DNA from: a virus
Lineage: Duplodnaviria; Caudoviricetes
Length of the DNA: 64,000 bases
Virus record (IMG/VR): IMGVR_UViG_3300005670_000019
Direction: 5' to 3' (one strand)
Shown here piece after piece: positions 7,433-60,986 of the stretch (position 1 is the stretch's first letter; every line of letters begins with the position of its first letter). The translations under genes and the position numbers were made by a program. The notes under the pieces were generated by a model. That model had not been told where the DNA came from and ran no database searches. It saw nothing but the letters and a program-made list of their open reading frames with translations.

Positions 7433-8122
7433 ATGAATTTAGAAATGCTTGCAAAAAAAGTTGTGATGAGTGATCAGTTTGAAGAACTAAAAGAACTCAT
7501 GCCTCAACTTTATAGACTAACACAGAACCTTTACAAAGATGTTGAATATGGTTCTGTGTCGCCTGATCTTCAAGAAAGAGTTGAAAAACACTTCAAATAT
7601 CTTTGGAGATATTTGAATCTTGGCGACAACATTTCTTTGACAGGACCGGAGGCTGCGTTTGTTGGGGATATGCATAGAAATGCAAAAGCGATAAGAACAA
7701 TCCAAAGTGATAAAAGGAGAGCTTCAATGTTTGGTGAAAGTAAGAAAATTACAAAGAAACAAATCAACAAACTCATCGAGAGCATTGTTGCTGAAATGTG
7801 TGATGAAGAGTTGAACGAGAGTGAGCTTTCTCCTGATCCCGAATGGGATACAATTCAAGGAGCTCCAATGCATCAACGTTATCCAGGCTCCTTTGAAGAA
7901 GATGGACAAAGACCTGATTTGAAAGAAGGAACCAATATCCGTTGGGATAATGGAGTTTACAAGGCAGCAATCAGTGCAAATAAAACAGCAGAACTTATTG
8001 GCAATTTGATTAGTCACTCAAATGGACTAAATGAAGATCAACTTTTCAAATTGAAGCAAACTCATGAAAAAGCATCTCATCTTGCCAAACTTGTTGAGAT
8101 TATGAAAAATTGGAGAAGTTGA
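7433..8122 (+). CDS. putative internal head protein (internal KITKKQINKLIESIVAE tag)
   Basis: Shared tag motif. Confidence 0.6.
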   Translation: MNLEMLAKKVVMSDQFEELKELMPQLYRLTQNLYKDVEYGSVSPDLQERVEKHFKYLWRYLNLGDNISLTGPEAAFVGDMHRNAKAIRTIQSDKRRASMFGESKKITKKQINKLIESIVAEMCDEELNESELSPDPEWDTIQGAPMHQRYPGSFEEDGQRPDLKEGTNIRWDNGVYKAAISANKTAELIGNLISHSNGLNEDQLFKLKQTHEKASHLAKLVEIMKNWRS

Positions 8123-8123
8123 A

Positions 8124-8375
8124 ATGAAGATTACGAAGAAACAAATTCAAAAACTTGTTGAGAGTATCATCAAAGAGCAACAACTTGACATAAGCACTAG
8201 AGTTGAAAATCTTGAAGCGATGAGAAAAGCAATTGTGAGATATCATGCTCACGCAGAAACACTTTTTGAATTACCAACATTTCAAAGACAGTTTGAACGA
8301 GGACTGAGAGAAATTGAAGAGGCTGTAAGCAATCAAATCTTTGCTCTTCAACATCCATACACTGACAAAGACTGA
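8124..8375 (+). CDS. putative internal head protein (MKITKKQIQKLVESIIKE tag)
   Basis: Shared tag motif. Confidence 0.6.
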   Translation: MKITKKQIQKLVESIIKEQQLDISTRVENLEAMRKAIVRYHAHAETLFELPTFQRQFERGLREIEEAVSNQIFALQHPYTDKD

Positions 8376-8379
8376 AGTC

Positions 8380-9192
8380 ATGAAAATCTCTCCAAAACAA
8401 CTTGATCAATTGATTGAAAGCCTCGTTGAACAGGCTTTCAATTCTCGTTTCCCTTCTGGAGATCCATATAAGAAAACTGATGTGGATAAAGACGTAGTGA
8501 AACTGAACAAGTATATGGAGACAACTGGTTTGTTCTTTCATTTCAGTGAAACAGGAAAGATTGGTATCAATCCTAAATCTACTGACCATCCGGGAGTTCG
8601 TGGATTTTATGGTTTTCTTCTAACGCCAAAAGAGTTCTTTCAGGAAAGTCACCATGAATGGTTCACAAAAAGAAAGTATATTGTTGTCTTCAAACTAAAG
8701 CCTGGTTTGAATATTCTGGAGCTTCGTAATAGATATGATTTGGATAAGACCTTGAAAAGGGGTCAATTCACATTGCAAATAAGAAAAGAGCCTTTGGACA
8801 GGCATCTTACCAGCAAAGCTGAACAAACAAGACTTCTTCAAAAGATGAACTTTGATGGGGTGTTCTCTGGACAACAGTTCTTCATGACAGATATGAAAAA
8901 TGAACTGGTTGTCTTTCCGCCTTACCAAAATAAAATTGAAATCGTTGATATCGTAAAAAACCCTCTTCACACTTACAAACAAAACAGAGAGTTTTACGAT
9001 CCCGTACATGACGGACCTCCAGATGAAACACCTCCTGTAAGAGTTCCTCCAAAGTATCAAGATAGCAGAGCTTCAAAGAAAAGAAGTGCGAAGAACAAAC
9101 TTCAAACTAACAAAGAACCAAAGAGTCGTAGTGAAGCCGAGAAGAGAAGGAAGAAGTTTGTGGATGACAACAATAGGGATCCACTCGATTGA
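8380..9192 (+). CDS. tagged protein with possible ADP-ribosyltransferase-like domain
   Basis: Start reassigned to ATG 8380 (MKISPKQLDQLIE); FFHFS...GFYGF...FDGV...ELVVF pattern resembles H-Y-E clade ARTs. Confidence 0.5.
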   Translation: MKISPKQLDQLIESLVEQAFNSRFPSGDPYKKTDVDKDVVKLNKYMETTGLFFHFSETGKIGINPKSTDHPGVRGFYGFLLTPKEFFQESHHEWFTKRKYIVVFKLKPGLNILELRNRYDLDKTLKRGQFTLQIRKEPLDRHLTSKAEQTRLLQKMNFDGVFSGQQFFMTDMKNELVVFPPYQNKIEIVDIVKNPLHTYKQNREFYDPVHDGPPDETPPVRVPPKYQDSRASKKRSAKNKLQTNKEPKSRSEAEKRRKKFVDDNNRDPLD

Positions 9193-9859: not shown

Positions 9860-10858
9860 ATGAAGATTACAAAGAAACAATTTGACCGCCTCGTTGAAGG
9901 TTTGGTAAAAGAACAATGGGCAGATTGGGAACTGGGTTTAGGAGAAAAACCTGATGAACAAGATGAAAAGTTCCCGTTTCCTAATGATCCTGATCTGCAT
10001 GACAATGACCTAGAAGACGAGGATCTCAACGAACAGTTCGAGTGGACTGATGAAGAACTTGCTTCAATGGGCGATGAAGAAAGTGACAAAGAAGAAGCAG
10101 ACCAATGGTTTTCTGACTTTACGGGAGAACTAACTGGAACTGAAGATGAAGATGATGATGACTATCCTTGGGATGATGAGTTTGTTGGCAAGGCAGACCG
10201 TTCAGAACGAGGAATGCAGGAAGCGAAAAAGAACAGATGTTGGGATGGTTACAAGCCTGTGAAGGACAAGAAGCCTTACTCGAAGGGCTCCTGTGAAAAA
10301 GTTGATGAAGCTGTTGGTGTAGAACAGGATGAGGAATTAGAACAGGCTAGAAGAAAATTTATTGGGAAAAAAATTACTGTAAAAGATGGTGATGTTGCAA
10401 GAATAGTTCAAGTAACAAGAGAAGAAAGAAGTGGTCGTTTGATGGCTTGGTACGAATATGAACGTGTCCAAGTTCACACTGGATGGGTATGGGTAGATAA
10501 ACTTGAGGAAAAACTTCAAGAAGCAAAAAAGAAAAAGAACAAATCTCCATCTGAAAAGGTTCGCAAACCAACAGCCCCTCCTTCACGTCAGCACAAAGAT
10601 CCAACCAAGTATGATCGTAAGAGAGACAAGAAGAACGTCGATTTGAATGAGATGCGTCCAATGAGCCGAAGAGGTTCGATGATGCAAGGAAAAGGAGAGA
10701 ATGTGTCTTCCTTTTTCGTCAACAAGATGATGGCAGAAATTAAGCGTCTTCTAAAAGGAAAGATGGATTGGGTAGACTTAGATTCAATTCAAAGACTTGA
10801 AAAAGCTCTAACTGATGTTGCACGCCAAGCTTATAGTGAACTTGATGAAGTTGATTGA
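9860..10858 (+). CDS. acidic putative internal head protein
   Basis: SD AGAGG + ATG 9860, MKITKKQFDRLVEGLVKE tag, multiple L-x-E sites. Confidence 0.65.
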   Translation: MKITKKQFDRLVEGLVKEQWADWELGLGEKPDEQDEKFPFPNDPDLHDNDLEDEDLNEQFEWTDEELASMGDEESDKEEADQWFSDFTGELTGTEDEDDDDYPWDDEFVGKADRSERGMQEAKKNRCWDGYKPVKDKKPYSKGSCEKVDEAVGVEQDEELEQARRKFIGKKITVKDGDVARIVQVTREERSGRLMAWYEYERVQVHTGWVWVDKLEEKLQEAKKKKNKSPSEKVRKPTAPPSRQHKDPTKYDRKRDKKNVDLNEMRPMSRRGSMMQGKGENVSSFFVNKMMAEIKRLLKGKMDWVDLDSIQRLEKALTDVARQAYSELDEVD

Positions 10859-10866: not shown

Positions 10867-11487
10867 ATGAAGGAGCAAAAGTTCAATACAGGCAAGGAAC
10901 GAAATCCGTACATTTCAAAACATCCAGATCATGAAGAATGGGAAATTGTCTTGGAGAAAAGAAATGGAACGTGGGTTTGGAATGGAGATGGATGGTCACA
11001 ACCATTTTTGTTTAGACGAACAAAAGAACCAAAAATATTCACATCTCCTGAAGAAGCAAAGCAAGAACTCAAAACCGTGGTCTTACCTTACATTCTCAAA
11101 TGGCAACCGGGAGTATGGGAAGATTATGTTGTTGGTCACGAACTTCCTGATGGATATCAACTAAAAACAGAAAGCAGAAAAATGAAGATTTCAAAGAGAC
11201 AGCTTGATAAACTTGTTGAGAATGTTGTAAAGAAACAACTTCAAGAAAGAGCTTCAAAAGACGAAAATATGAAGACTATCCAAATCATGAAGGAACTTCT
11301 TCTACGACTTCGTACATACGCTGATAAACTTACAGCTCCCGGCGAAACCACAATGAATGACAACACAGTCAAAGACATTCACAAATACCTTGAAGAGATT
11401 GAAGGATGGCTTGAAGGATATGAAGCATTTATTGATCTTGACGTCTTCTGGAATAGACTTGATAGTCCATATCGACCAGAGAAATGA
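10867..11487 (+). CDS. putative internal head protein (internal MKISKRQLDKLVENVV tag)
   Basis: Shared tag motif. Confidence 0.6.
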   Translation: MKEQKFNTGKERNPYISKHPDHEEWEIVLEKRNGTWVWNGDGWSQPFLFRRTKEPKIFTSPEEAKQELKTVVLPYILKWQPGVWEDYVVGHELPDGYQLKTESRKMKISKRQLDKLVENVVKKQLQERASKDENMKTIQIMKELLLRLRTYADKLTAPGETTMNDNTVKDIHKYLEEIEGWLEGYEAFIDLDVFWNRLDSPYRPEK

Positions 11488-27875: not shown

Positions 27876-28466
27876 TCATTCGCTGAACAGTTCAGGTAGA
27901 ACAGATTTCAACCAGTTTCTAACTTCTCCTTGAGGCATTTCACCAAGGTCTTTATAGGGTTTTGGTGTGCTGATAGACATAGAAGCAACAGACTTTAGTT
28001 TATTTCCAGCATCGTCATTGTCGGCAACGGCAATGACTTTTTTATTCATGGCAGCAAACCATGGTTTTAGCATCTTAGGATGATTTGCTAGAACAGCAAT
28101 TGCAGGCATTCCAATGTTGTGCAGCTTGACAGCATCAAAGATACCCTCTGTGACAAATAGGAAATCTTGGTTGTCAAAGACAGTTTCCAAGCCCCAAACA
28201 CCAATGGTCTTTTCTGGATGTTTTGTAATATACGTCCAGTATTTTGCCTTATCCCTGTCTCTGCTGTCGTTACCTGTCTTGGTTCCTTTTGGATTGTATT
28301 GTTGATATCCAACGAGTTGACCGGAAAGGTTGAAAAGAAGGAAAACGGCAAGGTTGTTTTCCTTGTCCATAATCACCCGTGTCTTTGATAGATCAACATC
28401 ACGCGATCGAAGATGGGATTCAATGTCATCATTCTCACATAAAAGAATTTGTTTTAGAGAAAACAT
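27876..28466 (-). CDS. Toprim-domain (primase-like) protein lacking zinc-binding domain
   Basis: VTEGIFDA, VIAVADNDDAG, KDLGE motifs. Confidence 0.8.
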   Translation of the reverse strand: MFSLKQILLCENDDIESHLRSRDVDLSKTRVIMDKENNLAVFLLFNLSGQLVGYQQYNPKGTKTGNDSRDRDKAKYWTYITKHPEKTIGVWGLETVFDNQDFLFVTEGIFDAVKLHNIGMPAIAVLANHPKMLKPWFAAMNKKVIAVADNDDAGNKLKSVASMSISTPKPYKDLGEMPQGEVRNWLKSVLPELFSE

Positions 28467-28481: not shown

Positions 28482-29201
28482 TCACAAGTTTGCGAACATG
28501 TCCTTGAAAAGGAATTTTGAATTAGCACGAGGTTCCCCAGTTTGTTTTGATTCTTCTGGATTGATCCAAATGATCATTTTCTCATAACGAACAGGACCAT
28601 AAGAAATTACTTCGTTCTCTTTCTTATAAAGTTTTGGCATCTTTACCTTTGAGTTCAACTCATCAGGATTTAGCAGAAACTTACCATTCTTCTTTATTGG
28701 CATTGTCTTGAACAAAACAACATATTCTTGGAAAGAATATGCAAATTCTTTCAGAATTTCTTTTTTTGTAGTCCATGACAATATAGGAGAATGCTCTGTT
28801 TCCAATACACCATTTTCAAAAACCCAAAGACGTTCGTCGCCAGGATTTCTTGCAAGGTCTTCTTTTGATAGTCCAGTCGTATTGAAAAACAAATCTAAAT
28901 TTACAGAACTAAAAGAAATTCCTCTATAAATCGGTTCATTTTCCGGAACAAGTAAGTTTGAATACTTGCCTTTCTGTGCCAGTTTGTAAACGTCCGGAAA
29001 TTCCTGAGCTATTTTGTCCGCCACCTGACTATTGATCCATTGAAAAAGTCCTTTCTTGAAATCTTCTTCTTCTGGAGTCTCTGGTTGTTTCTCTGTTTTT
29101 GAAATGTCTTTTCTGTCTCTATCAAAGAGATACTTGCCAAAAACATCATTTGGTTTGGCTTCGGACGGAGCGTCTTCAAATATTAATTTTTTGATGCTCA
29201 T
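28482..29201 (-). CDS. putative R-S-E ADP-ribosyltransferase, tagged (MSIKKLIFE)
   Basis: IYRG, LSWTT, ENEVI motifs. Confidence 0.65.
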   Translation of the reverse strand: MSIKKLIFEDAPSEAKPNDVFGKYLFDRDRKDISKTEKQPETPEEEDFKKGLFQWINSQVADKIAQEFPDVYKLAQKGKYSNLLVPENEPIYRGISFSSVNLDLFFNTTGLSKEDLARNPGDERLWVFENGVLETEHSPILSWTTKKEILKEFAYSFQEYVVLFKTMPIKKNGKFLLNPDELNSKVKMPKLYKKENEVISYGPVRYEKMIIWINPEESKQTGEPRANSKFLFKDMFANL

Positions 29202-30106
29202 GACTCTTCTGTCTTTTCTGGATAGTTTACACGACCGCCACTCATCGTTGCACCAGAGAAAAGGTCATTGAAGAACGGAATGACAAACTTTCTTCCTTTG
29301 TAAATCGAATAAAAATCATCTTGATCTTGCGCAACAGGAAGAACAACACTTCTTGGTTCCGTGGCATTTCCAGAGCCATCTGTGTAAAGAAGTTCTGCTT
29401 TCATTTGACCATCTTCTTGTCTCTCAACGAAGATTACACTTTCTTGTTCAAACTTCTTTCCAAGGAAAAGTAGATCATCTTTCGAAATGTTTGGAATAAC
29501 TAAAGGCTTTTCAACGTTTCCATATTTGCCTTGTATTTGGTAGAAACCATAACCAGCTTGACGTAGAGATTGTGCAAGCATCTTGTTTCTCTTCTTGTTT
29601 TCTTCTGGAGGCAGTTCCTTCGCAAATGGATTTTCTGCTGTCACAATTCCGATTGATGAAATGTTTTTTTCTTGTCCTGTGAGGCTTCTCATCAGTTTTG
29701 AATATCCACCCTCTGCAAGGTCCCCTTCATTTATTTGCACAGCCTCAGAGAGCCTTCTAGGTGCCTTGCCGTTGAAGCCAAATAGATGAGGTGAGACAAG
29801 AGCAGGACGAACAGAAAGAAGGTCACGAAGTCGAAGTTTACCTTCACCATAAAGGTCAACAATTTCAATTCCTCGTTTCTCTTCATCTTCATTTTCTTTG
29901 CTTGATTTATCATCCCAATACCAAGGTGCTTCATCATTTGGATTTGGAAGTTGAAGTTCATCCTGCTTCTGCTGATTTCTTTCGTCTTCTTCTTTCTTTT
30001 GACGATCAATCTCCCAAGGAGACGGAACCCAATCTTGTTCACTTAGGGTTTCTGAACTTGAGATGTTTTCTTTGATTGTGAACTTTTTCTTCTTACTCAT
30101 TTTCAT
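29198..30106 (-). CDS. DUF3293-like domain protein with acidic N-terminus
   Basis: IVTAENP...EN..RN..L...L...G.Y...E......LGKKFEQES. Confidence 0.6.
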   Translation of the reverse strand: MKMSKKKKFTIKENISSSETLSEQDWVPSPWEIDRQKKEEDERNQQKQDELQLPNPNDEAPWYWDDKSSKENEDEEKRGIEIVDLYGEGKLRLRDLLSVRPALVSPHLFGFNGKAPRRLSEAVQINEGDLAEGGYSKLMRSLTGQEKNISSIGIVTAENPFAKELPPEENKKRNKMLAQSLRQAGYGFYQIQGKYGNVEKPLVIPNISKDDLLFLGKKFEQESVIFVERQEDGQMKAELLYTDGSGNATEPRSVVLPVAQDQDDFYSIYKGRKFVIPFFNDLFSGATMSGGRVNYPEKTEES

Positions 30107-41348: not shown

Positions 41349-42110
41349 TTATTGAGCCTGTTTCTTGGGAGGAGCAACAGTTGGAGCTTGATTTCCAGGG
41401 GTTTGTGCTGATGTTTTTGTTTTCACAGGTTTTCTAGTAGCACTGTCAGAACCAATCGACTTACCATCTTTTGCATACTCTGTATTTGCTGTGTTTTTGT
41501 CAAAACCATAATCCAAAAGAACAACACGACCATCTGGAGTTTTGCCCCAATGATCATGGAACTTCATATCACCACGAATAAGACCCTTCTTGACAAGGTT
41601 GTTGATAGCATTCAAGAAAATCAAGTCTTGTTTTGCTTTGACTTTCTGTTCAGGTGTTGACATTTTAGATTGATCAATGTCTGATGGTTCCCATTGATCA
41701 CCCATTGCATATCCGATAATCTCAGAAGAATATCCTTTGATTTTCTCAAACTCATTCCAAGATGTAAGAGGACGAACAAGTTGAGCCATGACCCAGTTAC
41801 CTTTTGGGTCACTGTTTTGAATTAAAGCAAGAGCAGGTTGCAGTGTTTTATCTTGAGCAAACTGAACTTCTGTTTTGTTTTGTGCAATGCCCTTTGAATT
41901 GGTTGCAAACTTCATAACAAAGCGATTACTCAAAAGAAAAACTTTTCTTGAAGATCCTTCTCCTAATACTTGAAACTGTTGTTCTAATTGCCGAAGCTGA
42001 TCAACGAAGGGCAAATTTTTCCATTGTTGGAAATTGAACTGTCCTTTGCTTTTCAGTTTCTCCATCAGAACCTCACTCTCGATTTTTTCGAATTCACGAA
42101 GGAACATCAA
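41349..42110 (-). CDS. protein kinase-like, paralog 3
   Basis: LGEGSSR, VMK, QN..E, RGD....HWG, LLDYG. Confidence 0.8.
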   Translation of the reverse strand: MMFLREFEKIESEVLMEKLKSKGQFNFQQWKNLPFVDQLRQLEQQFQVLGEGSSRKVFLLSNRFVMKFATNSKGIAQNKTEVQFAQDKTLQPALALIQNSDPKGNWVMAQLVRPLTSWNEFEKIKGYSSEIIGYAMGDQWEPSDIDQSKMSTPEQKVKAKQDLIFLNAINNLVKKGLIRGDMKFHDHWGKTPDGRVVLLDYGFDKNTANTEYAKDGKSIGSDSATRKPVKTKTSAQTPGNQAPTVAPPKKQAQ

Positions 42111-42146
42111 AACCTCTTTTGTAAATATTTTCTTTTATTTGCTGCG

Positions 42147-42977
42147 TCAGGCATTGAATGCATAAAAGTTGATATAAACTTCATCGTTCAAACCATAATC
42201 AAGAAGAACAACTCTTCCGTCTGGTGTCTTGCCCCAATGTTCAATTTTCCCCGCGTCGCCCTCTGACAATCCATACTTCTTTCTTGCATATTCAACAGCT
42301 TCTTTATATTTTTTGAACTGTTCAGTTTCTTCTCCGAGATCAGCACGGAGCATTTCAATGTTCAGTTCCAAACTTTTTATATTTTTTTGATAATGTTGAA
42401 TATTCTTTTGTATTTCTTTGATATCTTTGGGATTTTCTGTCAGTTCTAAACTCTTTTGCAAACTGATGATCATTTGTTTTATCATTTCAAGATCATCAAG
42501 ATATGTTTCAAGGCGTCCAAATCGATCCGAACCATCAAAGAGGTCGTAAAAATCAAATCCGGCAATCTTGATGAATTCTTTCGTGGAATTATCAAATTGG
42601 TCCATTGGTTTCACCAAATCGGAAACAAGCCACATCCCTTCAGGATTGTGTTTGTAAACCTTGGCAAGAATGTGAGAAACTTCAGGATCCTGTGACATTT
42701 GTGTTTCGAGTTTGTTTTGGGCGAAACCTGCTTTATTCATTGCAATTTTCAAAACATATCTAGATGATAAAATGTAAACGGCTCGTGAAGATCCTTGACC
42801 TATCTTTTCAAGACTTTCTTTTGCATAATGATTTGCTACTGACCACTTTTCGCTATCAATCTGTTGGAATTCTTTGAAATTGAAGGAACTGTTTTGAGTG
42901 CCTTTTCTGCCTCTCAACTTCTCTTCAATGTCAGTTTGTTCCATTAGTTGCTTAAATCTTTTATCGATAAAATTCAT
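42147..42977 (-). CDS. protein kinase-like, paralog 2 (coiled-coil insertion)
   Basis: IGQGSSR, VLK, QN..E, EGD....HWG, LLDYG; start set at MNFIDK. Confidence 0.8.
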   Translation of the reverse strand: MNFIDKRFKQLMEQTDIEEKLRGRKGTQNSSFNFKEFQQIDSEKWSVANHYAKESLEKIGQGSSRAVYILSSRYVLKIAMNKAGFAQNKLETQMSQDPEVSHILAKVYKHNPEGMWLVSDLVKPMDQFDNSTKEFIKIAGFDFYDLFDGSDRFGRLETYLDDLEMIKQMIISLQKSLELTENPKDIKEIQKNIQHYQKNIKSLELNIEMLRADLGEETEQFKKYKEAVEYARKKYGLSEGDAGKIEHWGKTPDGRVVLLDYGLNDEVYINFYAFNA

Positions 42978-42979
42978 TG

Positions 42980-43678
42980 CTACATTCCTAGATAGTGTTC
43001 GTCCCAAACGTCAAGAGAAAGACCATAGTCTAATAATACAATTCTACCAGAAGCAGTAATTCCCCAATGGTCATCATATGCGATATCGCCTCCATGTAAA
43101 CCGTATTTGATTGCTTCTTGAACGCCCTTGAACGTTTCAAAAAGTTTTTTGAAGTTTATTTTGTTTACATTTTCGCGATATCCTTGTGCCAACTCTTTCA
43201 AAACCGCCTCAGTTGGTACAGTTTTTTTAAAAAGGATTTTGTTCAAAACATAAAAGAAGAAAGTTTTGGTACATCCAAAAGCTCGAAGATAATCTCTGTT
43301 ATGCGCTTCTTTCACAATCTCGCAAACAAGCCATCTATAGTTGCTATCAAAGTCATAAATTTCTGTAAAGATTGACTTCAAATCTGGATTTGTGAAAACT
43401 TCAACTTCATTTTTGTTTTGAGCTACACCCTTCAAAGAAGCTAATCCTATTGGACCTGCTCCAAGAGCGGATTTCAACACAAAACGTGAGGATAAAACGA
43501 AGGCACATCTGGAAGATCCCGCTCCGAGCCATTGAAGCCGTTTTTGAGCATAGGTGTTCGCTTCTTCCATATTGTTTTTTTCTGCAAGTTTTTTGAACTC
43601 ATTCCAATTGAAAGACTTTGAACGAATTTTTTCTAAAAGCGTGTTCTTTTGAACTTGTTTGTAAATCTCATCAAACAT
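42980..43678 (-). CDS. protein kinase-like, paralog 1
   Basis: LGAGSSR, VLK, QN..E, HGGD....HWG, LLDYG. Confidence 0.8.
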   Translation of the reverse strand: MFDEIYKQVQKNTLLEKIRSKSFNWNEFKKLAEKNNMEEANTYAQKRLQWLGAGSSRCAFVLSSRFVLKSALGAGPIGLASLKGVAQNKNEVEVFTNPDLKSIFTEIYDFDSNYRWLVCEIVKEAHNRDYLRAFGCTKTFFFYVLNKILFKKTVPTEAVLKELAQGYRENVNKINFKKLFETFKGVQEAIKYGLHGGDIAYDDHWGITASGRIVLLDYGLSLDVWDEHYLGM

Positions 43679-45799: not shown

Positions 45800-46231
45800 T
45801 CAGTGAACAGGTGTTGTATTGTAGTGGAGATTCAAAAGTCTTCTTGAAGCAGAACCAACTGATCCACCAACGATTTGAAGAATTGCAATCAATCCTCTTT
45901 CATCAATACCTTGTTTTTTTGCTTCGTCTTCAATTGCACGAAATAGATGACCAAGTTTTGCGTCGTCATGGAAATTTTCCTGATTGACAAACTGCTGCAT
46001 TGGTTTCTTCATTTTTGCACGAAGTTCAACAGCTTTTTGTCCCTTTGGGTCTTGTCCCTTGGTTATGTTTACCAACATTCTTGCTGCTTCTCTATAAGGA
46101 GCCAATTCTTTTTCTTTGGCTGCACCTGGCACTGGAGCAGGTTGTTTTCCTTGAGGACTTTGAGGTTGAGCTTGAGGAGAAGTTGGTTGAACTTCTCTTT
46201 CAAAGATTAATTGTTTGATTGTTTTCATCAC
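45800..46231 (-). CDS. putative internal head protein (MKTIKQLIFE tag)
   Basis: Second tag type. Confidence 0.55.
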   Translation of the reverse strand: MMKTIKQLIFEREVQPTSPQAQPQSPQGKQPAPVPGAAKEKELAPYREAARMLVNITKGQDPKGQKAVELRAKMKKPMQQFVNQENFHDDAKLGHLFRAIEDEAKKQGIDERGLIAILQIVGGSVGSASRRLLNLHYNTTPVH

Positions 46232-51593: not shown

Positions 51594-52283
51594 TTATCTT
51601 ACGCGCTTTCTGAGAGCGTTTAGGGCAGCTCCAAGCTGTTCTGAGTGATACTCCACAGCGCCTCGAATATTTTCAGTCCCAGGTGTACCCGAAAGAGCCG
51701 TTTCAAGTTGACGGCTCTTTTCTAGTATTGAGCTTACCTGTGGAAGTAGCTCTTGAAGAAGTTGTTTAGCTTCATCTGTTCTATCGTAGTCTTCACAAAG
51801 CTCGTCTTCTTCTCGAAGGTCTTTCTTGATGGCAGCTCTTTTTCTTTGAGCATCCATTCTCATTTTCTTTTCCTTCTGTCTTTGAAGAGCTGCGTTTAAT
51901 TCGTCTTTTGAAAGTGCAGAGCTGTCCGGGGCAAATAAAGGATGACTGTCATGCCTTCCGCGGTCTTCATTTTGAAGTTCTGCTTCAACAATACTTTCAA
52001 CAAGTTTCTTCAATTCTTTTTTCGTCATACGTCTTTCCTCTATTTTTGAAAGCCTGGAATAATAATCCGGAAGTTCTTTTAGATGAGCAAGAGCTATTCT
52101 TGCTGTTTTTTCCAAATCATTACCTGTTACGTTTGTTTGAGGTCCAAGTTCTGTTCCATGTTCAAGTTCAACCTTGATGCCTTTTCTGAACTGTTCAAGG
52201 TCGACTTCATTCCAATCAACTCCAATAGCATCTCCAATTTTTCTTGCGGCTGATGCACTTATTGATTTCGGAACCTTCATCAT
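51594..52283 (-). CDS. DUF5661-like domain + internal tag
   Basis: QF..G..VELEH...IALAHL.E.PDYY..L, then MTKKELKKLVESIVEAE. Confidence 0.7.
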   Translation of the reverse strand: MMKVPKSISASAARKIGDAIGVDWNEVDLEQFRKGIKVELEHGTELGPQTNVTGNDLEKTARIALAHLKELPDYYSRLSKIEERRMTKKELKKLVESIVEAELQNEDRGRHDSHPLFAPDSSALSKDELNAALQRQKEKKMRMDAQRKRAAIKKDLREEDELCEDYDRTDEAKQLLQELLPQVSSILEKSRQLETALSGTPGTENIRGAVEYHSEQLGAALNALRKRVR

Positions 52284-52528
52284 AACCTATCAATCGTTTG
52301 TTTGAGTTTCTCAGCAACTTTCAAAAGCTTTTCAAGGTCATACCCAGGACTTCCGCCTGAAAGTTCAATCATATCTTGAAGGTTAGCTACAACTCTTTCC
52401 ATATGAGCCTTTGTGCTCTCAACCATGCCAAGATATTCTTCATCAGGAAAGACTTCTCCAAATGGACCAGTTTCTTCTTGAATGATTTGCTCAATGAGAG
52501 CTCCTAGTTTTTTCTTTGAAAGTTTCAT
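52280..52528 (-). CDS. putative internal head protein (MKLSKKKLGALIEQIIQEE)
   Basis: Shared tag; TACTTA 6 nt before ATG. Confidence 0.6.
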   Translation of the reverse strand: MKLSKKKLGALIEQIIQEETGPFGEVFPDEEYLGMVESTKAHMERVVANLQDMIELSGGSPGYDLEKLLKVAEKLKQTIDRL

Positions 52529-52550: not shown

Positions 52551-54359
52551 CTATCGTCTAAGGTAATAGTTGTTCCAAACTTGTTTATTCAAACCAAAAT
52601 CCACAAGAACAAGTTTTTCTTTTCCATTTCTCTTCACAACACCCCAAGAAGAAATTCTTGTAATGTCTCCATGAGTCATATCAAGGTCAGCCATAATTTG
52701 AACAATTGTTTTGAACGATTCATTCTCTGAAAGACTTGGATCAATTGTGCTATTACTTCCCCATCCATGAAGTCTATTGCTAATGACCTTCAAACTATCA
52801 AAGAAGACTTCCATTGGAAACCCAATCAAATTTGGAAAATCAGATGGCTTCGCTTTTCTTGCAAGTTCCATTTCTACCCACAAATTATCTTCATCATGGT
52901 CAAAGACTTTTGCGGTTATGACACCATCGCTATCATATTGGGAAACTTCAATCTCTAGCTCGTTTTGAGCTAAGCCTTTTTTATTTTTAGCTACCTTTAT
53001 AGCTGTTTGATCATCTGCAACAAAAACAACTCTGGAAGATCCAGCTCCAATACGTGCAAGATGTTTCATTGCATATCCAGTTTTCTGCGCATATGAAGGA
53101 AGAGATTTGAGTTTCTCAAGCGAGAAGCCTTCCGGATAGTTTGCTATCTCTTCAATGTCACCTTCACTTAGATCCAACTGCTCGTTGAGTCCATTTCCGA
53201 CAAGTGAAATACTGCTAGCTGGTATTGAATGTTTGATGGCAAGGTTAGCCGGAAGGTTGAACTTTGCTGCCGTCTCCAACTCTTTCGCTGCTGTTGGCTC
53301 TACGCCATCTTCTGGGTCAGAAATCAAGTCAGATAGCCTGACCTTGATAGCAATAACGGCATCAGATCCCTTTTCTTCTGCATACCACTGAGCACTCTCG
53401 GCATAGTTGGTCACATAGAGATATTTTGGGTTGCCTTGTTGAGAACCACGAAAACCAGAATAAGGTTGCCAACCATTTTTCAACATGTTTTCCGCTGATG
53501 AGCGCGTTGTTCCATGATAGACGGTAAGTTCCGGATCGCCGTCTTCTAGTTCTTCAAAAATAAGAGATTTCAACAACATGTTCTTCCCAACACTTTCCTC
53601 TAATTTCTTTTGAAGAATTTTCAGCATCTCATCTCTTTTGTTTTTGAGTTTTTGTCTTTGTTCTTCTATGTCTTTATTTCGAAGGTTATTCAAAATCCTT
53701 TGCATTTCTGGATTTCTATGAGAAACAACTCTGTGAAGATCAGGATGTGCCAATCTCAACATCTTTTCAAAATCAACCTTTTGAAGACTTTCAATCATTT
53801 TTTGAATTTCTTCTTTTGAAAGAAGTTTGATGGACGAAGCAAGTTTTTCTGGTTCTAACTTTAGAATGACATTGGCGTCAAACATTCTTGGAGATGAGGG
53901 TTTCATTCCAATTGTTGGATGATTGAATTGAGGACCTTGAATTTCTTTTTTGTGGTCTGTTCTCTTTCCAATGATCTTTAGATTTTTCATCAAATCTTCT
54001 GGGATGAATGTCTCTTCATCCCAAAAGAAAGCTCCATGCAGGTTCTTGACACCCGCAGCTTGAAGCTCATCAAAACGCTTCCAGTGCCTCTCTACGGCTT
54101 GTTGATAATCTTCCATAGGAAGACTGAGGGTATAAAGAGTTATGGTTTTGAACGAACCCTGGGGGCGTTTGTGATAGGGTAAATCACGTCTTCCTGGGGC
54201 TCTGTCTTTTGAACTTGCCCATCCAACCCAAGAGTTTTGCATTGCTGATGGTTTTGAAGAAACAAAAAGACCCTTCATGCCAAACTTTGGTGAATAACGT
54301 GGACGAAGAACATTCACGTTCTCTGGTGAAGCATGATAAAGGGTCTTTAGCCTTGGCAT
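52551..54359 (-). CDS. polyprotein: ART-like + ART-like + kinase
   Basis: LYHAS..GLFVS..E; linker MLLKSLIFEE; VYHGT..YLYVT; linker LNE/IEE; IGAGSSR..HGD..WG..DFG. Confidence 0.7.
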   Translation of the reverse strand: MPRLKTLYHASPENVNVLRPRYSPKFGMKGLFVSSKPSAMQNSWVGWASSKDRAPGRRDLPYHKRPQGSFKTITLYTLSLPMEDYQQAVERHWKRFDELQAAGVKNLHGAFFWDEETFIPEDLMKNLKIIGKRTDHKKEIQGPQFNHPTIGMKPSSPRMFDANVILKLEPEKLASSIKLLSKEEIQKMIESLQKVDFEKMLRLAHPDLHRVVSHRNPEMQRILNNLRNKDIEEQRQKLKNKRDEMLKILQKKLEESVGKNMLLKSLIFEELEDGDPELTVYHGTTRSSAENMLKNGWQPYSGFRGSQQGNPKYLYVTNYAESAQWYAEEKGSDAVIAIKVRLSDLISDPEDGVEPTAAKELETAAKFNLPANLAIKHSIPASSISLVGNGLNEQLDLSEGDIEEIANYPEGFSLEKLKSLPSYAQKTGYAMKHLARIGAGSSRVVFVADDQTAIKVAKNKKGLAQNELEIEVSQYDSDGVITAKVFDHDEDNLWVEMELARKAKPSDFPNLIGFPMEVFFDSLKVISNRLHGWGSNSTIDPSLSENESFKTIVQIMADLDMTHGDITRISSWGVVKRNGKEKLVLVDFGLNKQVWNNYYLRR

Positions 54360-55253: not shown

Positions 55254-55311
55254 ATTTTATTGATCTCTAGGCAATAAATAGTGTTTGTTATTTTGTTGTC
55301 AAACACTAATA

Positions 55312-55782: not shown

Positions 55783-57690
55783 TCAGATGATTCCCATATC
55801 AAGAACCGTAACGGTTGCGTAGAAGTCCGAACGAACCATCTTCTTACCGTAACGTGTCATGATACCCTTACGAGGCGTGAAATCCTCCTGTGCGTAGATC
55901 ACAGGTGTAAGGATAAGAGGAATGTATGGAGCGTAGATATAACCACTCTCAAGGAAAGTGTTACCCTTCAATCCGATAAGAATCTTGTTCGCTGGGAAGT
56001 AAGGATCCTTATAGACTGTGTAGCGGCTGTTAAGTTGACCTGCTGGCTCTGCACCAACTGTCATTCCATCACGAACCTGTCCATCGCTATCGATCTTGTA
56101 CTGAGGCTTGTAAGCAACCATGTGCTCAAAGATTGTGCAGACCTGTGGTGAGGTCACAATGAAGTTACCTGAACCACGGAGCGTCTTTGTGTGAATGGTG
56201 TTTGCAGCGTCAGAGATTGTCTCGACAAGTGTCTGGTACCACTGTTGAACGTCAGCGTAGACCATTGGTCCTGGGCTGAGGGTGTTGTTCTGAAGAGCTT
56301 CACCACCAGTGTACTTGTTGACCAAACGTCCTGGAGCACGGCTCCAGAAGAGGTTTGCAGCGTTTGCCTGCGTAAGAAGGTCATTCAAGATTTCACGGTC
56401 GATTTCCAACGTGATCATTTCGCTGAGGATGTTGGTCAACTCAACTTCAATGTCAATGTTGTAGAAAGCCGTAAGGTCTTGAGCCATTTCTGGCGACCAC
56501 TTAGCACGAAGCTTACGGGTCTTTGCAGTCACAGAGGTTGACTCAATCTTGATATCAACATCTGGAATCTTTGGTGATGGCTCATCAACAGCGAAGTTAG
56601 ACTCGAACGATGGGATCGTAAGAGTTGCACCGTCGTTGTTTACTGAGAGTGCGTCTGTGATAACAGCCGAACCAGTTACGAACTCACCCGATGGAACTGC
56701 ACCAGTGTTGCTCAAACGAACAACGAACTGAATGTGGCTTCCGTTGAATGGATCTGGAACGAAGGTTCCGTTTACAGGATCGAAGTTACCGCGCTTGTTC
56801 AACTTACGAAGGTTGAGAACGCCTGCTCCGCCTTGGTAGTTTTCACCCCATGCGACAGCGCCTCCTGGCGTTGGTTGACCTGCGGTTGCAGCGAAACGTG
56901 AAAGAACGATTTGGTCAAGAGCAGAGCTGTCGAAACCGCCAACTGCTGAGGTCCAAAGAGAAGCTGAAACGTGAACGAAAGCGTAGTCAAGGACTGCGGT
57001 TTCAACGTCACGCTCAACATTCGAATCGTAATCTACGAAACGTGCATTGAAGCCTGTGAAATCTGCTGAAGAACCAACGGTTGCAGCAGGGGTCCAAGTT
57101 GAACCTGAAACCCAAGCACCGATGGAGTTTGAAAGAACAGCTACAACACCTGTCTTATGAACACGGCTGTATCCTGTACCAACGTTGTCATACATACCAC
57201 CTGTTGCAAGTGAACCGGAGCGAACTCCTGCGCCTGCTGGGTTGTTGTAGACTGATTGACCACGAGCGTATCCGTAGACTCCGCCTGTTCCGGAAAGGTC
57301 AACACCAGCGTCGCCACCAACGTTGTTTCCGTATGTGTAATCAAGATAGAACAAAAGTCCTGATGGAAGGCTCATTGGCTGAACGCTAACGACCTCATTT
57401 GCAATCAATCCTGCGAATACTCGACGGACGATTGGGAATGCGACGTTAGAGAAACCAACAACCTGACCACTTGAAACAAGACTTGCTCCACCCGTTGAAA
57501 GGGAGTTTGCTTCGCGAAGAAGCTCTGCTGTCTGGTTCTCAAGAAGGATAGCAAGGTTGTCTCGCTTCAAACCACGAAGACCCTCAAGCAAGCCATGCTC
57601 TTTCCATTTCTTTACAAGACGAGGTGCATCTGCTGCAACCTTCGATCTGTGAAGATTTTCCGCTAACTGCGATAGTGTAAATTTACTCAT
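55783..57690 (-). CDS. gp23: major capsid protein (T4 gp23-like) with large insertion
   Basis: LLENQ, VQPM..PSGL.F, TRKLRAKW..E.AQDL, EIDRE, YAPYIPL, TRYG. Confidence 0.96.
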   Translation of the reverse strand: MSKFTLSQLAENLHRSKVAADAPRLVKKWKEHGLLEGLRGLKRDNLAILLENQTAELLREANSLSTGGASLVSSGQVVGFSNVAFPIVRRVFAGLIANEVVSVQPMSLPSGLLFYLDYTYGNNVGGDAGVDLSGTGGVYGYARGQSVYNNPAGAGVRSGSLATGGMYDNVGTGYSRVHKTGVVAVLSNSIGAWVSGSTWTPAATVGSSADFTGFNARFVDYDSNVERDVETAVLDYAFVHVSASLWTSAVGGFDSSALDQIVLSRFAATAGQPTPGGAVAWGENYQGGAGVLNLRKLNKRGNFDPVNGTFVPDPFNGSHIQFVVRLSNTGAVPSGEFVTGSAVITDALSVNNDGATLTIPSFESNFAVDEPSPKIPDVDIKIESTSVTAKTRKLRAKWSPEMAQDLTAFYNIDIEVELTNILSEMITLEIDREILNDLLTQANAANLFWSRAPGRLVNKYTGGEALQNNTLSPGPMVYADVQQWYQTLVETISDAANTIHTKTLRGSGNFIVTSPQVCTIFEHMVAYKPQYKIDSDGQVRDGMTVGAEPAGQLNSRYTVYKDPYFPANKILIGLKGNTFLESGYIYAPYIPLILTPVIYAQEDFTPRKGIMTRYGKKMVRSDFYATVTVLDMGII

Positions 57691-57724: not shown

Positions 57725-59917
57725 TCAGTCGGCATCCTTTTTCTTAATTCCTGAAAGGACCTGCCAACGTTCGAAGGAACCAATTGCTGGTTCATACGAG
57801 CTTTCGCGGAGGGCTGCCGATGGAGATCCCGACTTGGTTGTCGCAGATGTAGAACCTGGCATTTTCTGTCCTTTGCTTGCCTTCTCGTTAAGAACCTTCT
57901 CAACTTTAAGATAAACATCTTTTGCTTCGGCGAGAGATTTTGCGTTATCCAAGAACTCTGCGATCTTAATCTTTTGAGTTTTTGTAACATCCTCACGAGC
58001 GAACAAACGGTTTGCATATACAAGCTTAGCCGTTGTTAGTCTTTCTTCTTGTAGCTTCTTCTCAAGATTCTTCTTCTCAAGAAGTGCTTTTTGAACCATC
58101 TTCTTAGCTTGTTCGCTAACTACTGGTTTACGAACTGGTGCTGGAGCTGGTTTGCGTGCTTGTGGCTTTGAAGGAGCCTTCTTTGAGGTCTTTGACTCTT
58201 GAAGTTTCTTAAGTTGTGAAACAACCTTACGACGGATGGACTCAACCAACTCATCATCAAGGAGCATTTCCTCACCCTCGTCACCAAGGTCTGAACCACC
58301 AAGTTCATCTCCACCAAGCTCTGAATCAAGGTCATCTCCACCAAAATCATCTGATGCACCAAGACCCTCGGCGTCATCAACAACCTCAAGCTCTTCATCG
58401 TCGCCAAGGTCAGACAGGTCAAGATCCATTCCATTTACTGTAAGAAGGAATTCGTCCTCGCCTTCCATATCAGAATCCATGTCGTGATCAATGTCAATAG
58501 CAAGGTCACCCTCACCCATGTCACTGTACTCACCAAGATCCATGTCTTCTGCCATAGCCATTTTCTTCTTGTCGGTATTTCCGATCTTTGCTCCGCCCTC
58601 TTCCCACTCAAGGTCAAGTGCGTGACCGCCTTCATCAGCTTCTTTCAAAGCCTTCTTGAGACGTGCAATATTTTCTTTCTTTAGACGACGGAAGACTTCA
58701 CGAAGCTCTTCTTCTTCAACTTCGAACTCCTCGGACTCGGCAACAGTCTTTGCAGCAAGAGACTTTGATTTGTCGTGTACATCTTTTGAAGCAGTCTCAG
58801 CACCGGAAGCTTCTGAACCATCACCGAATGGTGAGCCAGCATCTTCAAGATCACTGTTTGTGCTTTCTTCTTTCATAAGATCAACATCGTCTGCACCATC
58901 TACTGATTGTGCGTGTGAAGTTGCCTTGTCATCTGTTGGTACTCCTGTATCACCTGTTGAATCGGAGTCTTGCGCGAGGTTCTCTTCCTCGAACAATTTT
59001 GCTGCCATTTCTTTAAGAGTTGCCATCGTTGTCTTACCCTTTTCTTCTCCATAACTATTGCTGGATTTTGCTTCTTTCAATTTCAAATTGAGAAATTCTA
59101 ACTTATTCTCTTCATTTTTTTGTTTTTTGGCATTAATTTCACCCGTTTCTCGAAGATAATCGAGTGTTTCTACCAAAGAGAATAATTGATTTTTCAAACT
59201 ATCAAACACAATTCTTGGAGTATTTTTTCTAAAGAAAGCTCTGTCAATTTTGTTTGATACTTCGGAAAGCTTTGTTTTATAGCCTTCATAAGTACGTGTT
59301 TCTGGAAGTGTTGGCTCTGTTTGTTCTGCCTCAACACCTGCAAGTGCATCAAGAGATGTGTCAAGACCGGCTTCTGCTCCAGGCTCTTGTCCTGCTGCTG
59401 CATTTACGTCTTGACTCTCTGGTGTGTTTGTTGATGGCAATGCTGGTTGTTCTGCTGGAGCACCAACATCCAATGAGGATGCATCAACTGAAGATGGAAG
59501 AGCTTCTGGATCGTTGTCATCTGTTTGAACAAACAATTGATCAAAATCAACAACAATCTTTCCGTCTTCATCTGGAAGTTGAAGTCCTGCAATATCATTT
59601 TGCGGTTGTACTGGGGCTGGTGAAGCATCTCCACCCATTGAAGCTGGTGTCGTTTCAACCGAAGCTGCATTCATATCTGCTCCAGTGTTTCCAGCATCAA
59701 GTCCTGTATCAAGACCAAGATCCCCTGTACCGTCTTCAGTTTCATCAAACTGAAGTTCTTCCTGCTCAAGGAGTGTCTTTCCAGAAGAAATCTCTGCTGA
59801 AATTGCTCTTCGAATTACAGGAGTAATCTGTTCCAAGATTTTATTTCTTGCTTCCTGAACAGCCAATTCTCTAATTTTGTTGGCATCTGCCAACGCTTCA
59901 TCATATAGTTTACTCAT
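57725..59917 (-). CDS. prohead scaffold/core protein
   Basis: Very acidic, EALADA start, KL.Y.N.LF, C-terminal RWQ.L.GI; directly upstream of MCP. Confidence 0.75.
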   Translation of the reverse strand: MSKLYDEALADANKIRELAVQEARNKILEQITPVIRRAISAEISSGKTLLEQEELQFDETEDGTGDLGLDTGLDAGNTGADMNAASVETTPASMGGDASPAPVQPQNDIAGLQLPDEDGKIVVDFDQLFVQTDDNDPEALPSSVDASSLDVGAPAEQPALPSTNTPESQDVNAAAGQEPGAEAGLDTSLDALAGVEAEQTEPTLPETRTYEGYKTKLSEVSNKIDRAFFRKNTPRIVFDSLKNQLFSLVETLDYLRETGEINAKKQKNEENKLEFLNLKLKEAKSSNSYGEEKGKTTMATLKEMAAKLFEEENLAQDSDSTGDTGVPTDDKATSHAQSVDGADDVDLMKEESTNSDLEDAGSPFGDGSEASGAETASKDVHDKSKSLAAKTVAESEEFEVEEEELREVFRRLKKENIARLKKALKEADEGGHALDLEWEEGGAKIGNTDKKKMAMAEDMDLGEYSDMGEGDLAIDIDHDMDSDMEGEDEFLLTVNGMDLDLSDLGDDEELEVVDDAEGLGASDDFGGDDLDSELGGDELGGSDLGDEGEEMLLDDELVESIRRKVVSQLKKLQESKTSKKAPSKPQARKPAPAPVRKPVVSEQAKKMVQKALLEKKNLEKKLQEERLTTAKLVYANRLFAREDVTKTQKIKIAEFLDNAKSLAEAKDVYLKVEKVLNEKASKGQKMPGSTSATTKSGSPSAALRESSYEPAIGSFERWQVLSGIKKKDAD

Positions 59918-59924
59918 GTTCTAA

Positions 59925-60440
59925 TCACTCGCTGCTTGAACGTCCGTAAATCAATCTGCCAATCTTTTGGCTACTAATTTTCTCTGCTGTATCTTTTGGA
60001 ACAGCGAACCCATCAGTGTTTGCGCCTGGAGGAGTATTGAATGCTCCGCCACCACCGCGCTTACGTTGAGTTGCTTCAACACCTGCTGCTGGAATGTTTG
60101 CTGGGTTGTGTGGATCCTCAGCTGCCACTGCAATGTTAGGAGCATAAGGACTTCCCGGAAGACCTCCGCCACCAACTTCAACATCTGCAAAATCAGGAGC
60201 ACCATCAGGGTTACTTGTAGAAGGACCGTAATCCAAATTTACTGTACCAAACGTATGTCCCTCATCACTAATTGTTCCATCTTGGAAGCTTTGTGCCAAA
60301 GCAGTAACTTGGGCGTCTTTGTATTCACCAGAATACACAGGAGAGCCTGGATAGAGAATTTGCATATCTCTTGTATCACTGGATCCCATTCCGAATGTTC
60401 TTACTGGTGGTTCGACTTTGATTTGTTTGTGTGAAGGCAT
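59925..60440 (-). CDS. head-module protein (Gly/Pro-rich)
   Basis: SD AGGAG, TATTTA motif, between protease and scaffold. Confidence 0.65.
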   Translation of the reverse strand: MPSHKQIKVEPPVRTFGMGSSDTRDMQILYPGSPVYSGEYKDAQVTALAQSFQDGTISDEGHTFGTVNLDYGPSTSNPDGAPDFADVEVGGGGLPGSPYAPNIAVAAEDPHNPANIPAAGVEATQRKRGGGGAFNTPPGANTDGFAVPKDTAEKISSQKIGRLIYGRSSSE

Positions 60441-60485
60441 TGAATAGCTCCTTAGCTTTTTCTAAATATACGTTCAAAATCAAAA

Positions 60486-60986
60486 TCAACGAGGTCTTTG
60501 AGACTTAGAGAATGCAAGCTCTGCCCAACGAGAAGCAAACTGTCCTTCTTGACGAGGAGGAGCAACTGGCGTTGGCATTTCTTGTTGTTCTTGAAGCATG
60601 TGAGGCTGTTGATAGTTTTCTTGATAACTTTGGTGCATTCCTTGTTGAAGAACGCCCATGTGTTGAGCGTGCCTATCTCCCAAAACGTGAGGATGGTTTG
60701 CAGCCGTGTCTGAAAATATTTCGTAGAGAGCACTCATTTGATTTGGATTGCCTTTTGCCATATTCGAAGCCAATGTTGAAATAGCTCCTGCGGCTGGGTG
60801 TCCGTGCATCATTTGGTTATAGTGAGGCTGCGGGAAACCGTTTTGTGGAGGCATTATTTGAGGATTAGAAGGCATTGAAACTTGCTTCATGCTTTCCATC
60901 ATCATTTGTTGAAAATGACCTTCTTGAATTAATTCTTTCAAACACTCTTTGATTAGTGATTTGAATTGCTTACCTGACATTTTCAT
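60486..60986 (-). CDS. tagged Q/M/P-rich low-complexity head-module protein
   Basis: MKMSGKQFKSLIKECLKE start. Confidence 0.65.
   Translation of the reverse strand: MKMSGKQFKSLIKECLKELIQEGHFQQMMMESMKQVSMPSNPQIMPPQNGFPQPHYNQMMHGHPAAGAISTLASNMAKGNPNQMSALYEIFSDTAANHPHVLGDRHAQHMGVLQQGMHQSYQENYQQPHMLQEQQEMPTPVAPPRQEGQFASRWAELAFSKSQRPR

Follow-up and report, generated by a model that had tools for sequence, protein, structure and literature searches.

Mullaney and Black are said to have reported in 1996 that a capsid-targeting sequence (CTS) resides on IPI, IPII, IPIII and Alt of bacteriophage T4 and is removed by gp21. The core and internal proteins (IPs) of T4 enter the prohead core by means of N-terminal sequences of 10-19 residues, and gp21 cuts after L/I-X-E; among the T-even phages the cargo genes differ while the CTS is kept, and the internal-protein loci are plastic (PMC9026906, PMC3012670). 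Here, we describe a set of short peptide tags on otherwise unrelated proteins encoded in a 64,000-nt stretch of viral DNA (IMG/VR record IMGVR_UViG_3300005670_000019), referred to throughout as the window. On the strength of sequence and analogy, the tags probably act as T4-like capsid-targeting and processing leaders that direct proteins into the prohead core.

The likeness to the T4 CTS lies in short N-terminal leaders that end in L/I-x-Glu on otherwise unrelated proteins, in a phage whose genes include those for a gp21-family S77 protease, a candidate gp22-like scaffold and gp23, in cargo genes that are plastic between relatives, and in one cargo protein that is an R-S-E ADP-ribosyltransferase (ART) like Alt. 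The differences concern length (13-20 residues versus 6-10 for the IPs and Alt), the coexistence of two or more interchangeable leader types, the additional use of tags internally as linkers in multi-module proteins, and number: T4 has about 4-5 tagged genes, the 64-kb window 10-14 and one complete relative (G007) about 31. Unlike the T4 system, the tags are known from sequence alone; the T4 CTS MKTYQEFIAE was compared with them by eye, and homology at such a length is undemonstrable either way.

The phiKZ-like giants (SPN3US, 201phi2-1 and phiKZ) likewise pack many proteins, have propeptides that a gp21-related protease cleaves off after x-x-Glu, and include some paralogs with conserved N-termini in common; however, their motif is A/S/G-x-E, their propeptides often exceed 100 residues, no single short tag extends across many cargo proteins, and their head gene set is another one (PMC5694885, PMC10052503). 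The Dar anti-restriction proteins of phage P1, which counter host defence, also travel in the head and are delivered together with the DNA. Capsid targeting is discussed for them as well, and their loading reportedly depends on a hierarchy of partner proteins rather than on one short shared leader with a protease site (PMC9024508).

Judged from its genes, the phage is an uncultured giant of the T4 type and a distant relative of T4, with a genome of about 300 kb; its source is wastewater or freshwater samples. On the minus strand of the window the order is portal, a 294-amino-acid (aa) protein, protease, proteins of 166 aa and 171 aa, a scaffold-like protein, capsid and two tail-sheath paralogs:

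62532..63998, minus strand: gp20-type portal (PF07230, 5e-57), running off the window
60983..61657, minus strand: gp21-type prohead serine protease (Peptidase_S77; PF03420, E 2.4e-20)
57725..59917, minus strand: gp22-like scaffold candidate of 730 aa, very acidic, coiled-coil, so named from position and composition
55783..57690, minus strand: gp23-type major capsid protein (PF07068, 3e-73)
33886-39952, minus strand: two tandem tail-sheath paralogs of about 1000 aa each

The gp21-like protease, already proposed in an earlier, sequence-only reading of this DNA, is borne out by its PF03420 score of 73 bits (cut-off 27) and by the segments GELDH and GISSRALGS, which align with GELNH and GVSSRGLGS of T4 gp21 and keep the catalytic His and Ser motifs. 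The scaffold candidate, which has no Pfam match, is encoded directly upstream of the capsid gene and contains 21 [LI]xE sites. The capsid protein begins MSKFTLSQLAE, and LLRE followed by A at residue 61 is likely its propeptide cut. A megablast comparison of the head module with cultured phages gave no match; the nearest cultured phage is Microcystis phage Mel-JY01, with 35% identity in the capsid protein and 46% in the protease. Both tail-sheath paralogs are kept, at 55-56% identity, in G001, a 320-kb relative whose protease is 68% identical, and are found in G007 too.

The long form of the tag is a motif of 16-20 residues, MK[IL][TS]KKQ[LIF]xxL[VI]E[SQGN][IV][VI], carried at the N-terminus by the first seven of the following proteins and internally by the last three; each is named hereafter by its first coordinate:

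8124..8375, plus strand: 83-aa protein, N-terminal tag MKITKKQIQKLVE followed by S, then a helical region
8380..9192, plus strand: 270-aa protein, N-terminal tag MKISPKQLDQLIE followed by S, basic cargo of no known family
9860..10858, plus strand: 332-aa protein, N-terminal tag MKITKKQFDRLVE followed by G, acidic low-complexity cargo
32994..33272, minus strand: 92-aa protein, tag MKITKKQLSKLVE followed by Q
33274..33879, minus strand: 201-aa acidic protein, weaker tag MKLTSKQINKLAE followed by K
52280..52528, minus strand: 82-aa acidic protein, tag MKLSKKKLGALIE followed by Q
60486..60986, minus strand: 166-aa protein rich in Gln and Met, its gene immediately following that of the protease, cousin tag MKMSGKQFKSLIKECLKE
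7433..8122, plus strand: 229-aa protein, internal tag at 7742-7801 (residue 105), KKITKKQINKLIE followed by S
10867..11487, plus strand: 206-aa protein, internal tag at 11182-11241 (residue 106, or 110 when counted from the start of the open frame), MKISKRQLDKLVE followed by N
51594..52283, minus strand: 229-aa protein with DUF5661 domain (PF18905, 1e-19), internal tag at 51975-52034 (residue 85), RRMTKKELKKLVE followed by S, and a helical region

These ten open reading frames (ORFs) and tag positions are those that the sequence-only reading had named, and both a regular-expression search and the separation from background by a hidden Markov model (HMM) confirm them. In a six-frame scan of the window the long motif was confined to genuine coding frames. 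An HMM built on the ten tags gave each of them 25-37 bits, the best other six-frame match reaching 7.3 bits; in leave-one-out models seven tags kept 21-29 bits, 51594 had 18, 52280 had 14 and 33274 had 11, and 60486 dropped to background at 6.9 bits. Pairs of N-termini similar by at least 30 BLOSUM units numbered 19, versus one in internal control segments. The core L[VI]E[SQGNE][ILV][VI] is found in eight tagged proteins and is absent from the rest of the 84 called ORFs, and L-[VIA]-E stands at positions 11-13 in nine of the ten long tags, with I-K-E one residue later in 60486. With the tags masked, every pair among the ten proteins had a BLASTP E value above 0.01. Synonymous codons vary from tag to tag, which argues for selection on the peptide itself.

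Such a shared start could in principle reflect nothing more than expression (a 5′ coding region rich in A and in Lys), or it could be left over from one duplicated family of small proteins. MK starts with AAA/AAG codons do favour translation initiation, and several of the tagged proteins are small, helical and alike in size. This explanation has the smallest probability of those considered and is already unlikely: three tags are internal and one of these lacks a Met, the hydrophobic and Glu positions between 8 and 16 are conserved while the synonymous codons vary, the remainders of the proteins are unrelated, and one cargo family bears leaders of different types. It is in 7433 that no Met stands at the tag, so that this tag is truly internal and has no separate start; in 51594 a GAGG ribosome-binding-like site lies ahead of an internal ATG, and the layout of 10867 is the same in a near-identical strain (L009). 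The DUF5661 domain of 51594 scores 70.7 against a Pfam cut-off of 27. Relatives of 8380 with 56-63% identity retain the tag, and the 33274 gene lies directly downstream of a tail sheath gene.

The notion that the tag is a copy of part of the scaffold candidate, which contains LVESI, the tag core, was rejected as not significant, five other untagged proteins sharing one 5-mer with the tags. As a side observation, a DUF7178 protein (54378-55253, minus strand) ends in the tag-like RRIRQIVGALIEEEIRNL at its C-terminus; C-terminal processing also occurs in T4 Alt and gp21.

Tags of this kind extend well beyond the window. A DNA-pattern search of IMG/VR retrieved more than 109 stretches that encode MKI[ST]KKQL, and 55 of 88 translated matches continue as a tag, with the environmental consensus MKITKKQL[KR]xIIKEE[IL] and, in environmental contigs, the form MKITKKQLKQIIKEE. 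The Glu in the environmental tags lies one residue later than in the window, and the [LI]-x-Glu rule (I-x-E) is kept in both registers. The 45 distinct environmental tagged proteins sort into 39 cargo groups with no relationship to one another. Of the loci, each at most 15 kb long, 26 include portal, protease, capsid or sheath genes from this clade, and a tagged gene often stands directly before the protease gene, which is the position of T4 genes 67/68. An S77 protease is encoded in three of the four large tag-bearing contigs; the exception is 32% complete. The gene 60486 belongs to a conserved family, MKxSxxQ[FL]KxLIKEC, that follows the protease gene in every relative examined, position and N-terminus being kept in G001, G007, L007, L037, L041 and L073. 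In the marine relatives, a gene of about 80 aa comes directly after this tagged post-protease gene (L037 9186-9431, L041 11625-11870, L073 1980-2216); a gene at the same head-module position in Mel-JY01 is annotated RpsU (ribosomal protein S21), a likeness drawn from position alone.

The complete 284-kb relative G007 has 348 ORFs, of which 31 encode proteins with related N-termini, mainly of the types M[KR]IT[KR][KR]QLRRIIKEE and M[KN]LLREYIRxLLxE. A single tagged gene comes after that of the protease; the others sit in arrays remote from the head module, for most of them at a distance of 100-200 kb. A restriction of the tags to late or structural operons, as expected from the sequence-only reading, is hence not general. 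In G001, a search with the window-tag HMM gave no convincing match. Clustering its N-termini de novo revealed 13 proteins with diverged tags of their own (e.g. MQITKAQLQQMISEAV and MKVTKTQLQKMVNEAV) that carry M[IV]xE, nine of them within the structural region at 95-132 kb. Nine tagged genes of the window have no homologues in G001, where the flanking genes are syntenic; being absent between conserved genes, they are best seen as plastic insertions. G001 also holds, at 249-298 kb and scattered elsewhere, a large paralog expansion of 21 members (L013-L029; 70-150 aa; N-terminal motif (I/V)GD(L/I)(I/V/F)), which is unrelated to the tags. A tblastn search with a 25-residue environmental tag against cultured phages gave no match, probably because the query was short and low-complexity segments were filtered; the head module of cyanophage P-HM2 has no such tag, and among the papers searched none contains the motif strings or reports tag sets of this sort from uncultured T4-type phages.

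A second, shorter tag, K[KQS]LIFE, is found on proteins that include recognizable enzymes. Its regular expression, [KR][KQS][LI][LI][FC]E, occurs three times in the window versus 0.05 expected from shuffles, at the N-termini of 28482 and 45800 and at residue 264 of 52551, with I-F-E at the end in all three. These are the sites at which the short form described in the sequence-only reading holds good; 27876, which had been included, falls outside the pattern. Its start, MFSLKQ(L/I)L, is nevertheless also the leader on P0033, a relative of 28482. Among cultured phages, Mel-JY01 (PP395634) is a carrier too, with a 125-aa protein whose start reads MKIKKIIFED (L011 1047-1424). The proteins concerned, with two further candidates for enzyme cargo, are:

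28482..29201, minus strand: 239-aa protein, by model and sequence an R-S-E ART, 9-aa leader MSIKKLIFE followed by D
27876..28466, minus strand: 196-aa Toprim-domain protein (PF13155, Toprim_2, 24.5 bits versus a cut-off of 22.1), leader MFSLKQILLCE followed by N
45800..46228, minus strand: 142-aa protein in the neck/tail operon, short tag MKTIKQLIFE followed by R
52551..54359, minus strand: 602-aa protein of several modules, with the internal short tag LLKSLIFEE (53553-53570) separating modules
29198..30106, minus strand: 302-aa protein with a DUF3293/S-AdoMet-lyase-family domain, candidate degenerate leader MKMSKKKKFTIKE picked out by eye
41349..43678, minus strand: three tandem small protein-kinase-like paralogs of 252, 276 and 232 aa, inside the neck/tail block

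The 29198 protein scores 46.9 (cut-off 25) for DUF3293 and 30.9 (cut-off 28) for S-AdoMet_lyase, and may counter restriction in the manner of the T3 SAMase; it shares an operon with the ADP-ribosyltransferase and the Toprim protein. The kinase-like family comprises 41349, 42147, 42980 and the C-terminal module of 52551 (residues 426-601; phrog_4301), with a Gly-rich loop GxGSSR, a strand-3 Lys (K69) and a DFG-type Asp in D217-[YF]-G219, all invariant. No Pfam family matches it; its structural model (predicted local distance difference test, pLDDT, of 84) has a Foldseek probability of 1.00 to WbdD, PRPK, Rio2 and APH. It corresponds to PHROG 4301, formerly of unassigned function, the copy fused at the end of 52551 being the fourth. 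The G001 counterparts of the three tandem paralogs begin with tag-like leaders. From the cargo list of the sequence-only reading, the ART (28482, by fold), Toprim (27876), DUF5661 (51594), DUF3293/S-adenosylmethionine (SAM) lyase (29198) and kinase-like fold (52551 C-terminus) could be recovered. Modules 1 and 2 of 52551, and likewise 55312, are suspected of ART-like folds (YH[AG][ST]).

The ART family of 28482 is especially informative, since its relatives display the exchange of leaders on one cargo. Word-based homologue searches gave close relatives only; an exhaustive profile-free search found 173 relatives, and the best 150 of the 173 were examined. Among these, the domain start PEAxxDxFGxYLF is shared and the preceding part is variable. 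Some relatives begin with short leaders (MKIKKLIFE, MISLQRLLFEE, MIKLKKLILE) and some with long ones (MKKSILKEYIKILAEQE, MKLTLGQLRRLIREA, MNKIKKLIESIVNEE); others have no leader, or other modules before the domain in proteins of 450-760 residues. Where the domain lies near the N-terminus (125 relatives), 113 have a leader with hydrophobic-x-Glu (h-x-E), one has a leader without it and 11 have none, so that h-x-E is present in 113 of 114 leaders. Internal ART modules are preceded by tag-like linkers, and in some proteins there are two modules, each with its own linker. As far as the sequences tell, the leaders are interchangeable on this one cargo family, whether long, short, internal or absent.

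The assignment of 28482 rests on residues and fold. R93, W143 (S-W-T) and E197 (E-N-E; Glu-x-Glu) are invariant across 74 sequences. Pfam gave no ART match, and Foldseek against the Protein Data Bank (PDB) returned nothing at E <= 0.001 for the AlphaFold model (pLDDT 89.5; 57 for the first ten residues, the leader). An exhaustive aligner run against 48,161 representative chains did give ART matches: nearly all of the top 28 were R-S-E ARTs, headed at modest Z scores by Vis (5.4, the best) and XopAI (5.3), then C3, ExoS and ART2.2. Together, model and sequence indicate that 28482 is an R-S-E (cholera-toxin-like) ADP-ribosyltransferase. T4 Alt is a packaged R-S-E ART from which gp21 removes six N-terminal residues at ITE (PMC5694885); 28482 has a 9-residue leader ending IFE and is, by analogy, the closest parallel to Alt that we found.

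Two other functions for the leaders can be weighed against these observations. One is that the tag is a general interaction helix, a coiled-coil or docking peptide for some phage or host hub, which stays uncleaved and has nothing to do with the capsid. The long tag is predicted to be helical and amphipathic, its hydrophobics at positions 8, 11, 12, 15 and 16 form a heptad-like pattern, the tagged arrays of G007 are distant from the head genes and some tags are internal, all of which would suit such a helix. Left without explanation, however, would be the Glu after [LI]-x that is kept despite the register shift, the h-x-E just before the domain in nearly every ART leader, the conserved tagged genes that flank the protease gene, and the replacement of a long leader by a flexible one of 9 residues on the same cargo; we regard a mere interaction helix as quite improbable. 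The other is that the leader serves mainly as a safety catch on harmful enzymes, removable by the protease, with targeting left to other parts of the protein. ART, Toprim and kinase-like cargo could damage the producing cell, the leader directly precedes the conserved start of the ART domain, and the role of the N- and C-terminal propeptides of T4 Alt is still debated in such terms (PMC5694885). Even so, very little probability attaches to this function, as most tagged proteins are small and helical and show no sign of being enzymes, a flexible 9-residue leader is unlikely to block an active site, and in T4 the first 10 residues alone suffice for targeting (PMC9026906).

A closer question is what becomes of the cargo once it is in the prohead. 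The tag could target the prohead core while most of the tagged proteins are scaffold or core parts that are degraded and expelled before DNA packaging, like gp67, gp68 and gp22 of T4, and not an injected arsenal. The mature forms of 8124, 32994, 52280, 33274, 9860, 7433, 10867 and 51594 (for the last three, the C-terminal parts) are small or acidic, with isoelectric points of 4.5-5.8, helical-looking and endowed with 1-6 further [LI]xE sites; most long-tag cargo looks at least as much like the T4 core proteins gp67 and gp68 as like injected enzymes. The T4 core proteins (gp67, gp68, gp22 and the gp21 N-terminus) are likewise small, acidic and helical, encoded beside the protease gene and cut at several L/I-x-E sites, and their N-termini contain hydrophobic-x-Glu: MEGLIE in gp67 (80 aa), MLLIPE in gp68 (141 aa), and MLKEQLIAE and MNEPQLLIE among gp21/gp22. 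No likeness in sequence between these and the tagged proteins was noticed, no search aimed at it having been made. In relatives, tagged genes stand where T4 has genes 67 and 68. Moreover, no enzyme family came to light for the long-tag cargo. Searches of Pfam, PHROGs and PDB sequences returned nothing for 8380, 9860, 33274, 28482 and most of 52551, and no enzyme family was found for 8380, 9860, 33274 or the first two modules of 52551. It is important to point out, however, that the tagged genes, save 60486, are not conserved even between related phages, and their absence from G001 is unexpected for essential core parts; in addition, the ART, Toprim, SAM-lyase-family and kinase-like cargo is plainly enzymatic. 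We consider it unlikely that most tagged proteins are such expelled parts. The 'effector arsenal' of the sequence-only reading is only partly supported, in that some of the cargo is enzymatic while most of the long-tag cargo is small, acidic and helical with extra [LI]xE sites, and these small proteins may be injected or may be transient parts of the core.

A T4-like role in capsid targeting and processing is therefore weighed here as a whole. The earlier proposal of capsid targeting and removal by gp21 gains partial support from the S77 protease, the [LI]-x-E ends, the selection on the peptide, the gene positions, the swapping of leaders and the Alt-like cargo, and the tags fit the T4 template in all features tested bar a strictly N-terminal position. 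Several observations nevertheless weigh against this role. Three of the ten long tags and one of the three short tags are internal, which T4 CTSs are not; 60486 stands outside the tight tag family in the leave-one-out HMM; most tagged genes of G007 are remote from its head genes; and the cluster at 7433-11487 is not preceded by a late-promoter-like motif. [LI]xE is also a weak motif that is common among helical, Glu-rich proteins. Finally, the closest cultured relative, Mel-JY01, is distant, as the modest identity of its protease attests. In favour of the role counts the placement of [LI]xE, which falls in the first 20 residues of 29 of 82 ORFs of the window and at residues 40-60 in 11 of 65.

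If the tags do function as in T4, core binding, packaging, cleavage and ejection would proceed by analogy as follows. A short leader would bind the assembling scaffold core, the long form as an amphipathic helix and the 9-residue form as a flexible peptide, and the leader-bearing proteins would be enclosed as the gp23-type shell closes. The S77 (gp21-type) protease would then cleave on the C-terminal side of the Glu in [LI]-x-E; this phage has L-V-E in its long tag and I-F-E in the short one, and its relatives have I-x-E. In 8124 the cut would come after Glu13 and expose SIIKEQQ as the new start, in 28482 after Glu9 and expose DAPSEAK; in T4 IPIII, changing Glu to Asp abolishes cleavage. Internal tags would act as cut linkers that free the modules of fusion proteins. 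The cargo would be mixed: enzymes that probably enter the host with the DNA (Alt-like ART, Toprim, SAM-lyase-family and kinase-like modules), alongside numerous small, acidic and helical proteins, perhaps additional components of the core or additional internal proteins.

A bolder proposition, which we offer tentatively and would not yet call probable, is that a clade of uncultured, mostly aquatic T4-type phages has a portable peptide address code that loads dozens of unrelated proteins, up to about 9% of genes, for first-strike injection. The code would comprise several interchangeable leader types that double as cut-here linkers in polyproteins, and the cargo would include Alt-like ARTs, SAM-lyase-family proteins, nucleases and kinases. 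Were this so, one could tell directly from sequence which proteins uncultured phages package. Should the tags act as does the T4 CTS, the capsid proteins that reach the host first could be predicted from sequence only, and many unknown phage genes, including candidates for anti-defence and host takeover, would become tractable; capsid cargo could be swapped by changing what trails a leader of 10-20 residues, and new, longer leaders would be at hand for protein-packaging vectors. The mechanism in T4 has long been known, and the advance would lie in scale, diversity and distribution, not in principle.

The tagged operons can also be considered from the side of their expression. The sequence-only reading had noted a late motif TAxTTA before them, which is better read as CTATTTAT and precedes several tagged operons, though not the 7433-11487 cluster:

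55274..55281, minus strand: promoter-like motif CTATTTAT, before the operon 54378-52551-52280-51594
48217-48224, 41252-41259 and 31036-31043, minus strand: further copies of CTATTTAT

All four copies lie between genes on the minus strand, with an ATG following after 12-28 nt, and they head the operons starting at 54378, 47496, 40030 and 30093. These operons hold 28482/27876, 45800, 52551/52280/51594 and 40030; 33274/32994, downstream of 40030 and the sheath genes, are included if no start intervenes. The motif is kept before two G001 counterparts, and it is probably a late promoter. It differs from the T4 late promoter TATAAATA, of which the canonical form occurs once in the window, and would give very short leaders.

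A 20-nt motif, CTAATTGGTTATCTTCCACT, is present at 9205-9224 (plus strand), 21469-21488 (minus strand) and 41295-41314 (minus strand), two copies being exact and one having two mismatches, with none expected by chance. The copies are intergenic and lie upstream of 9247 (Nudix), 21086 and 40030, the third about 36 nt upstream of a CTATTTAT motif; the element may be a regulatory site. The stretch 20001-24000, with a GC content of 0.50 compared with 0.37-0.44 elsewhere in the window and with small minus-strand ORFs that have no G001 homologues, may be foreign DNA. Lastly, the gene at 47496-48209 (minus strand) encodes a GIY-YIG domain protein whose first 20 or so residues, MPTFIQTMNPTPWGYWN, resemble the start, MPSFIQTQNPCPFGYWD, of the conserved downstream gene at 46228-47511 (minus strand), and it looks like a homing-endonuclease insertion that duplicated the 5′ end of its target gene.

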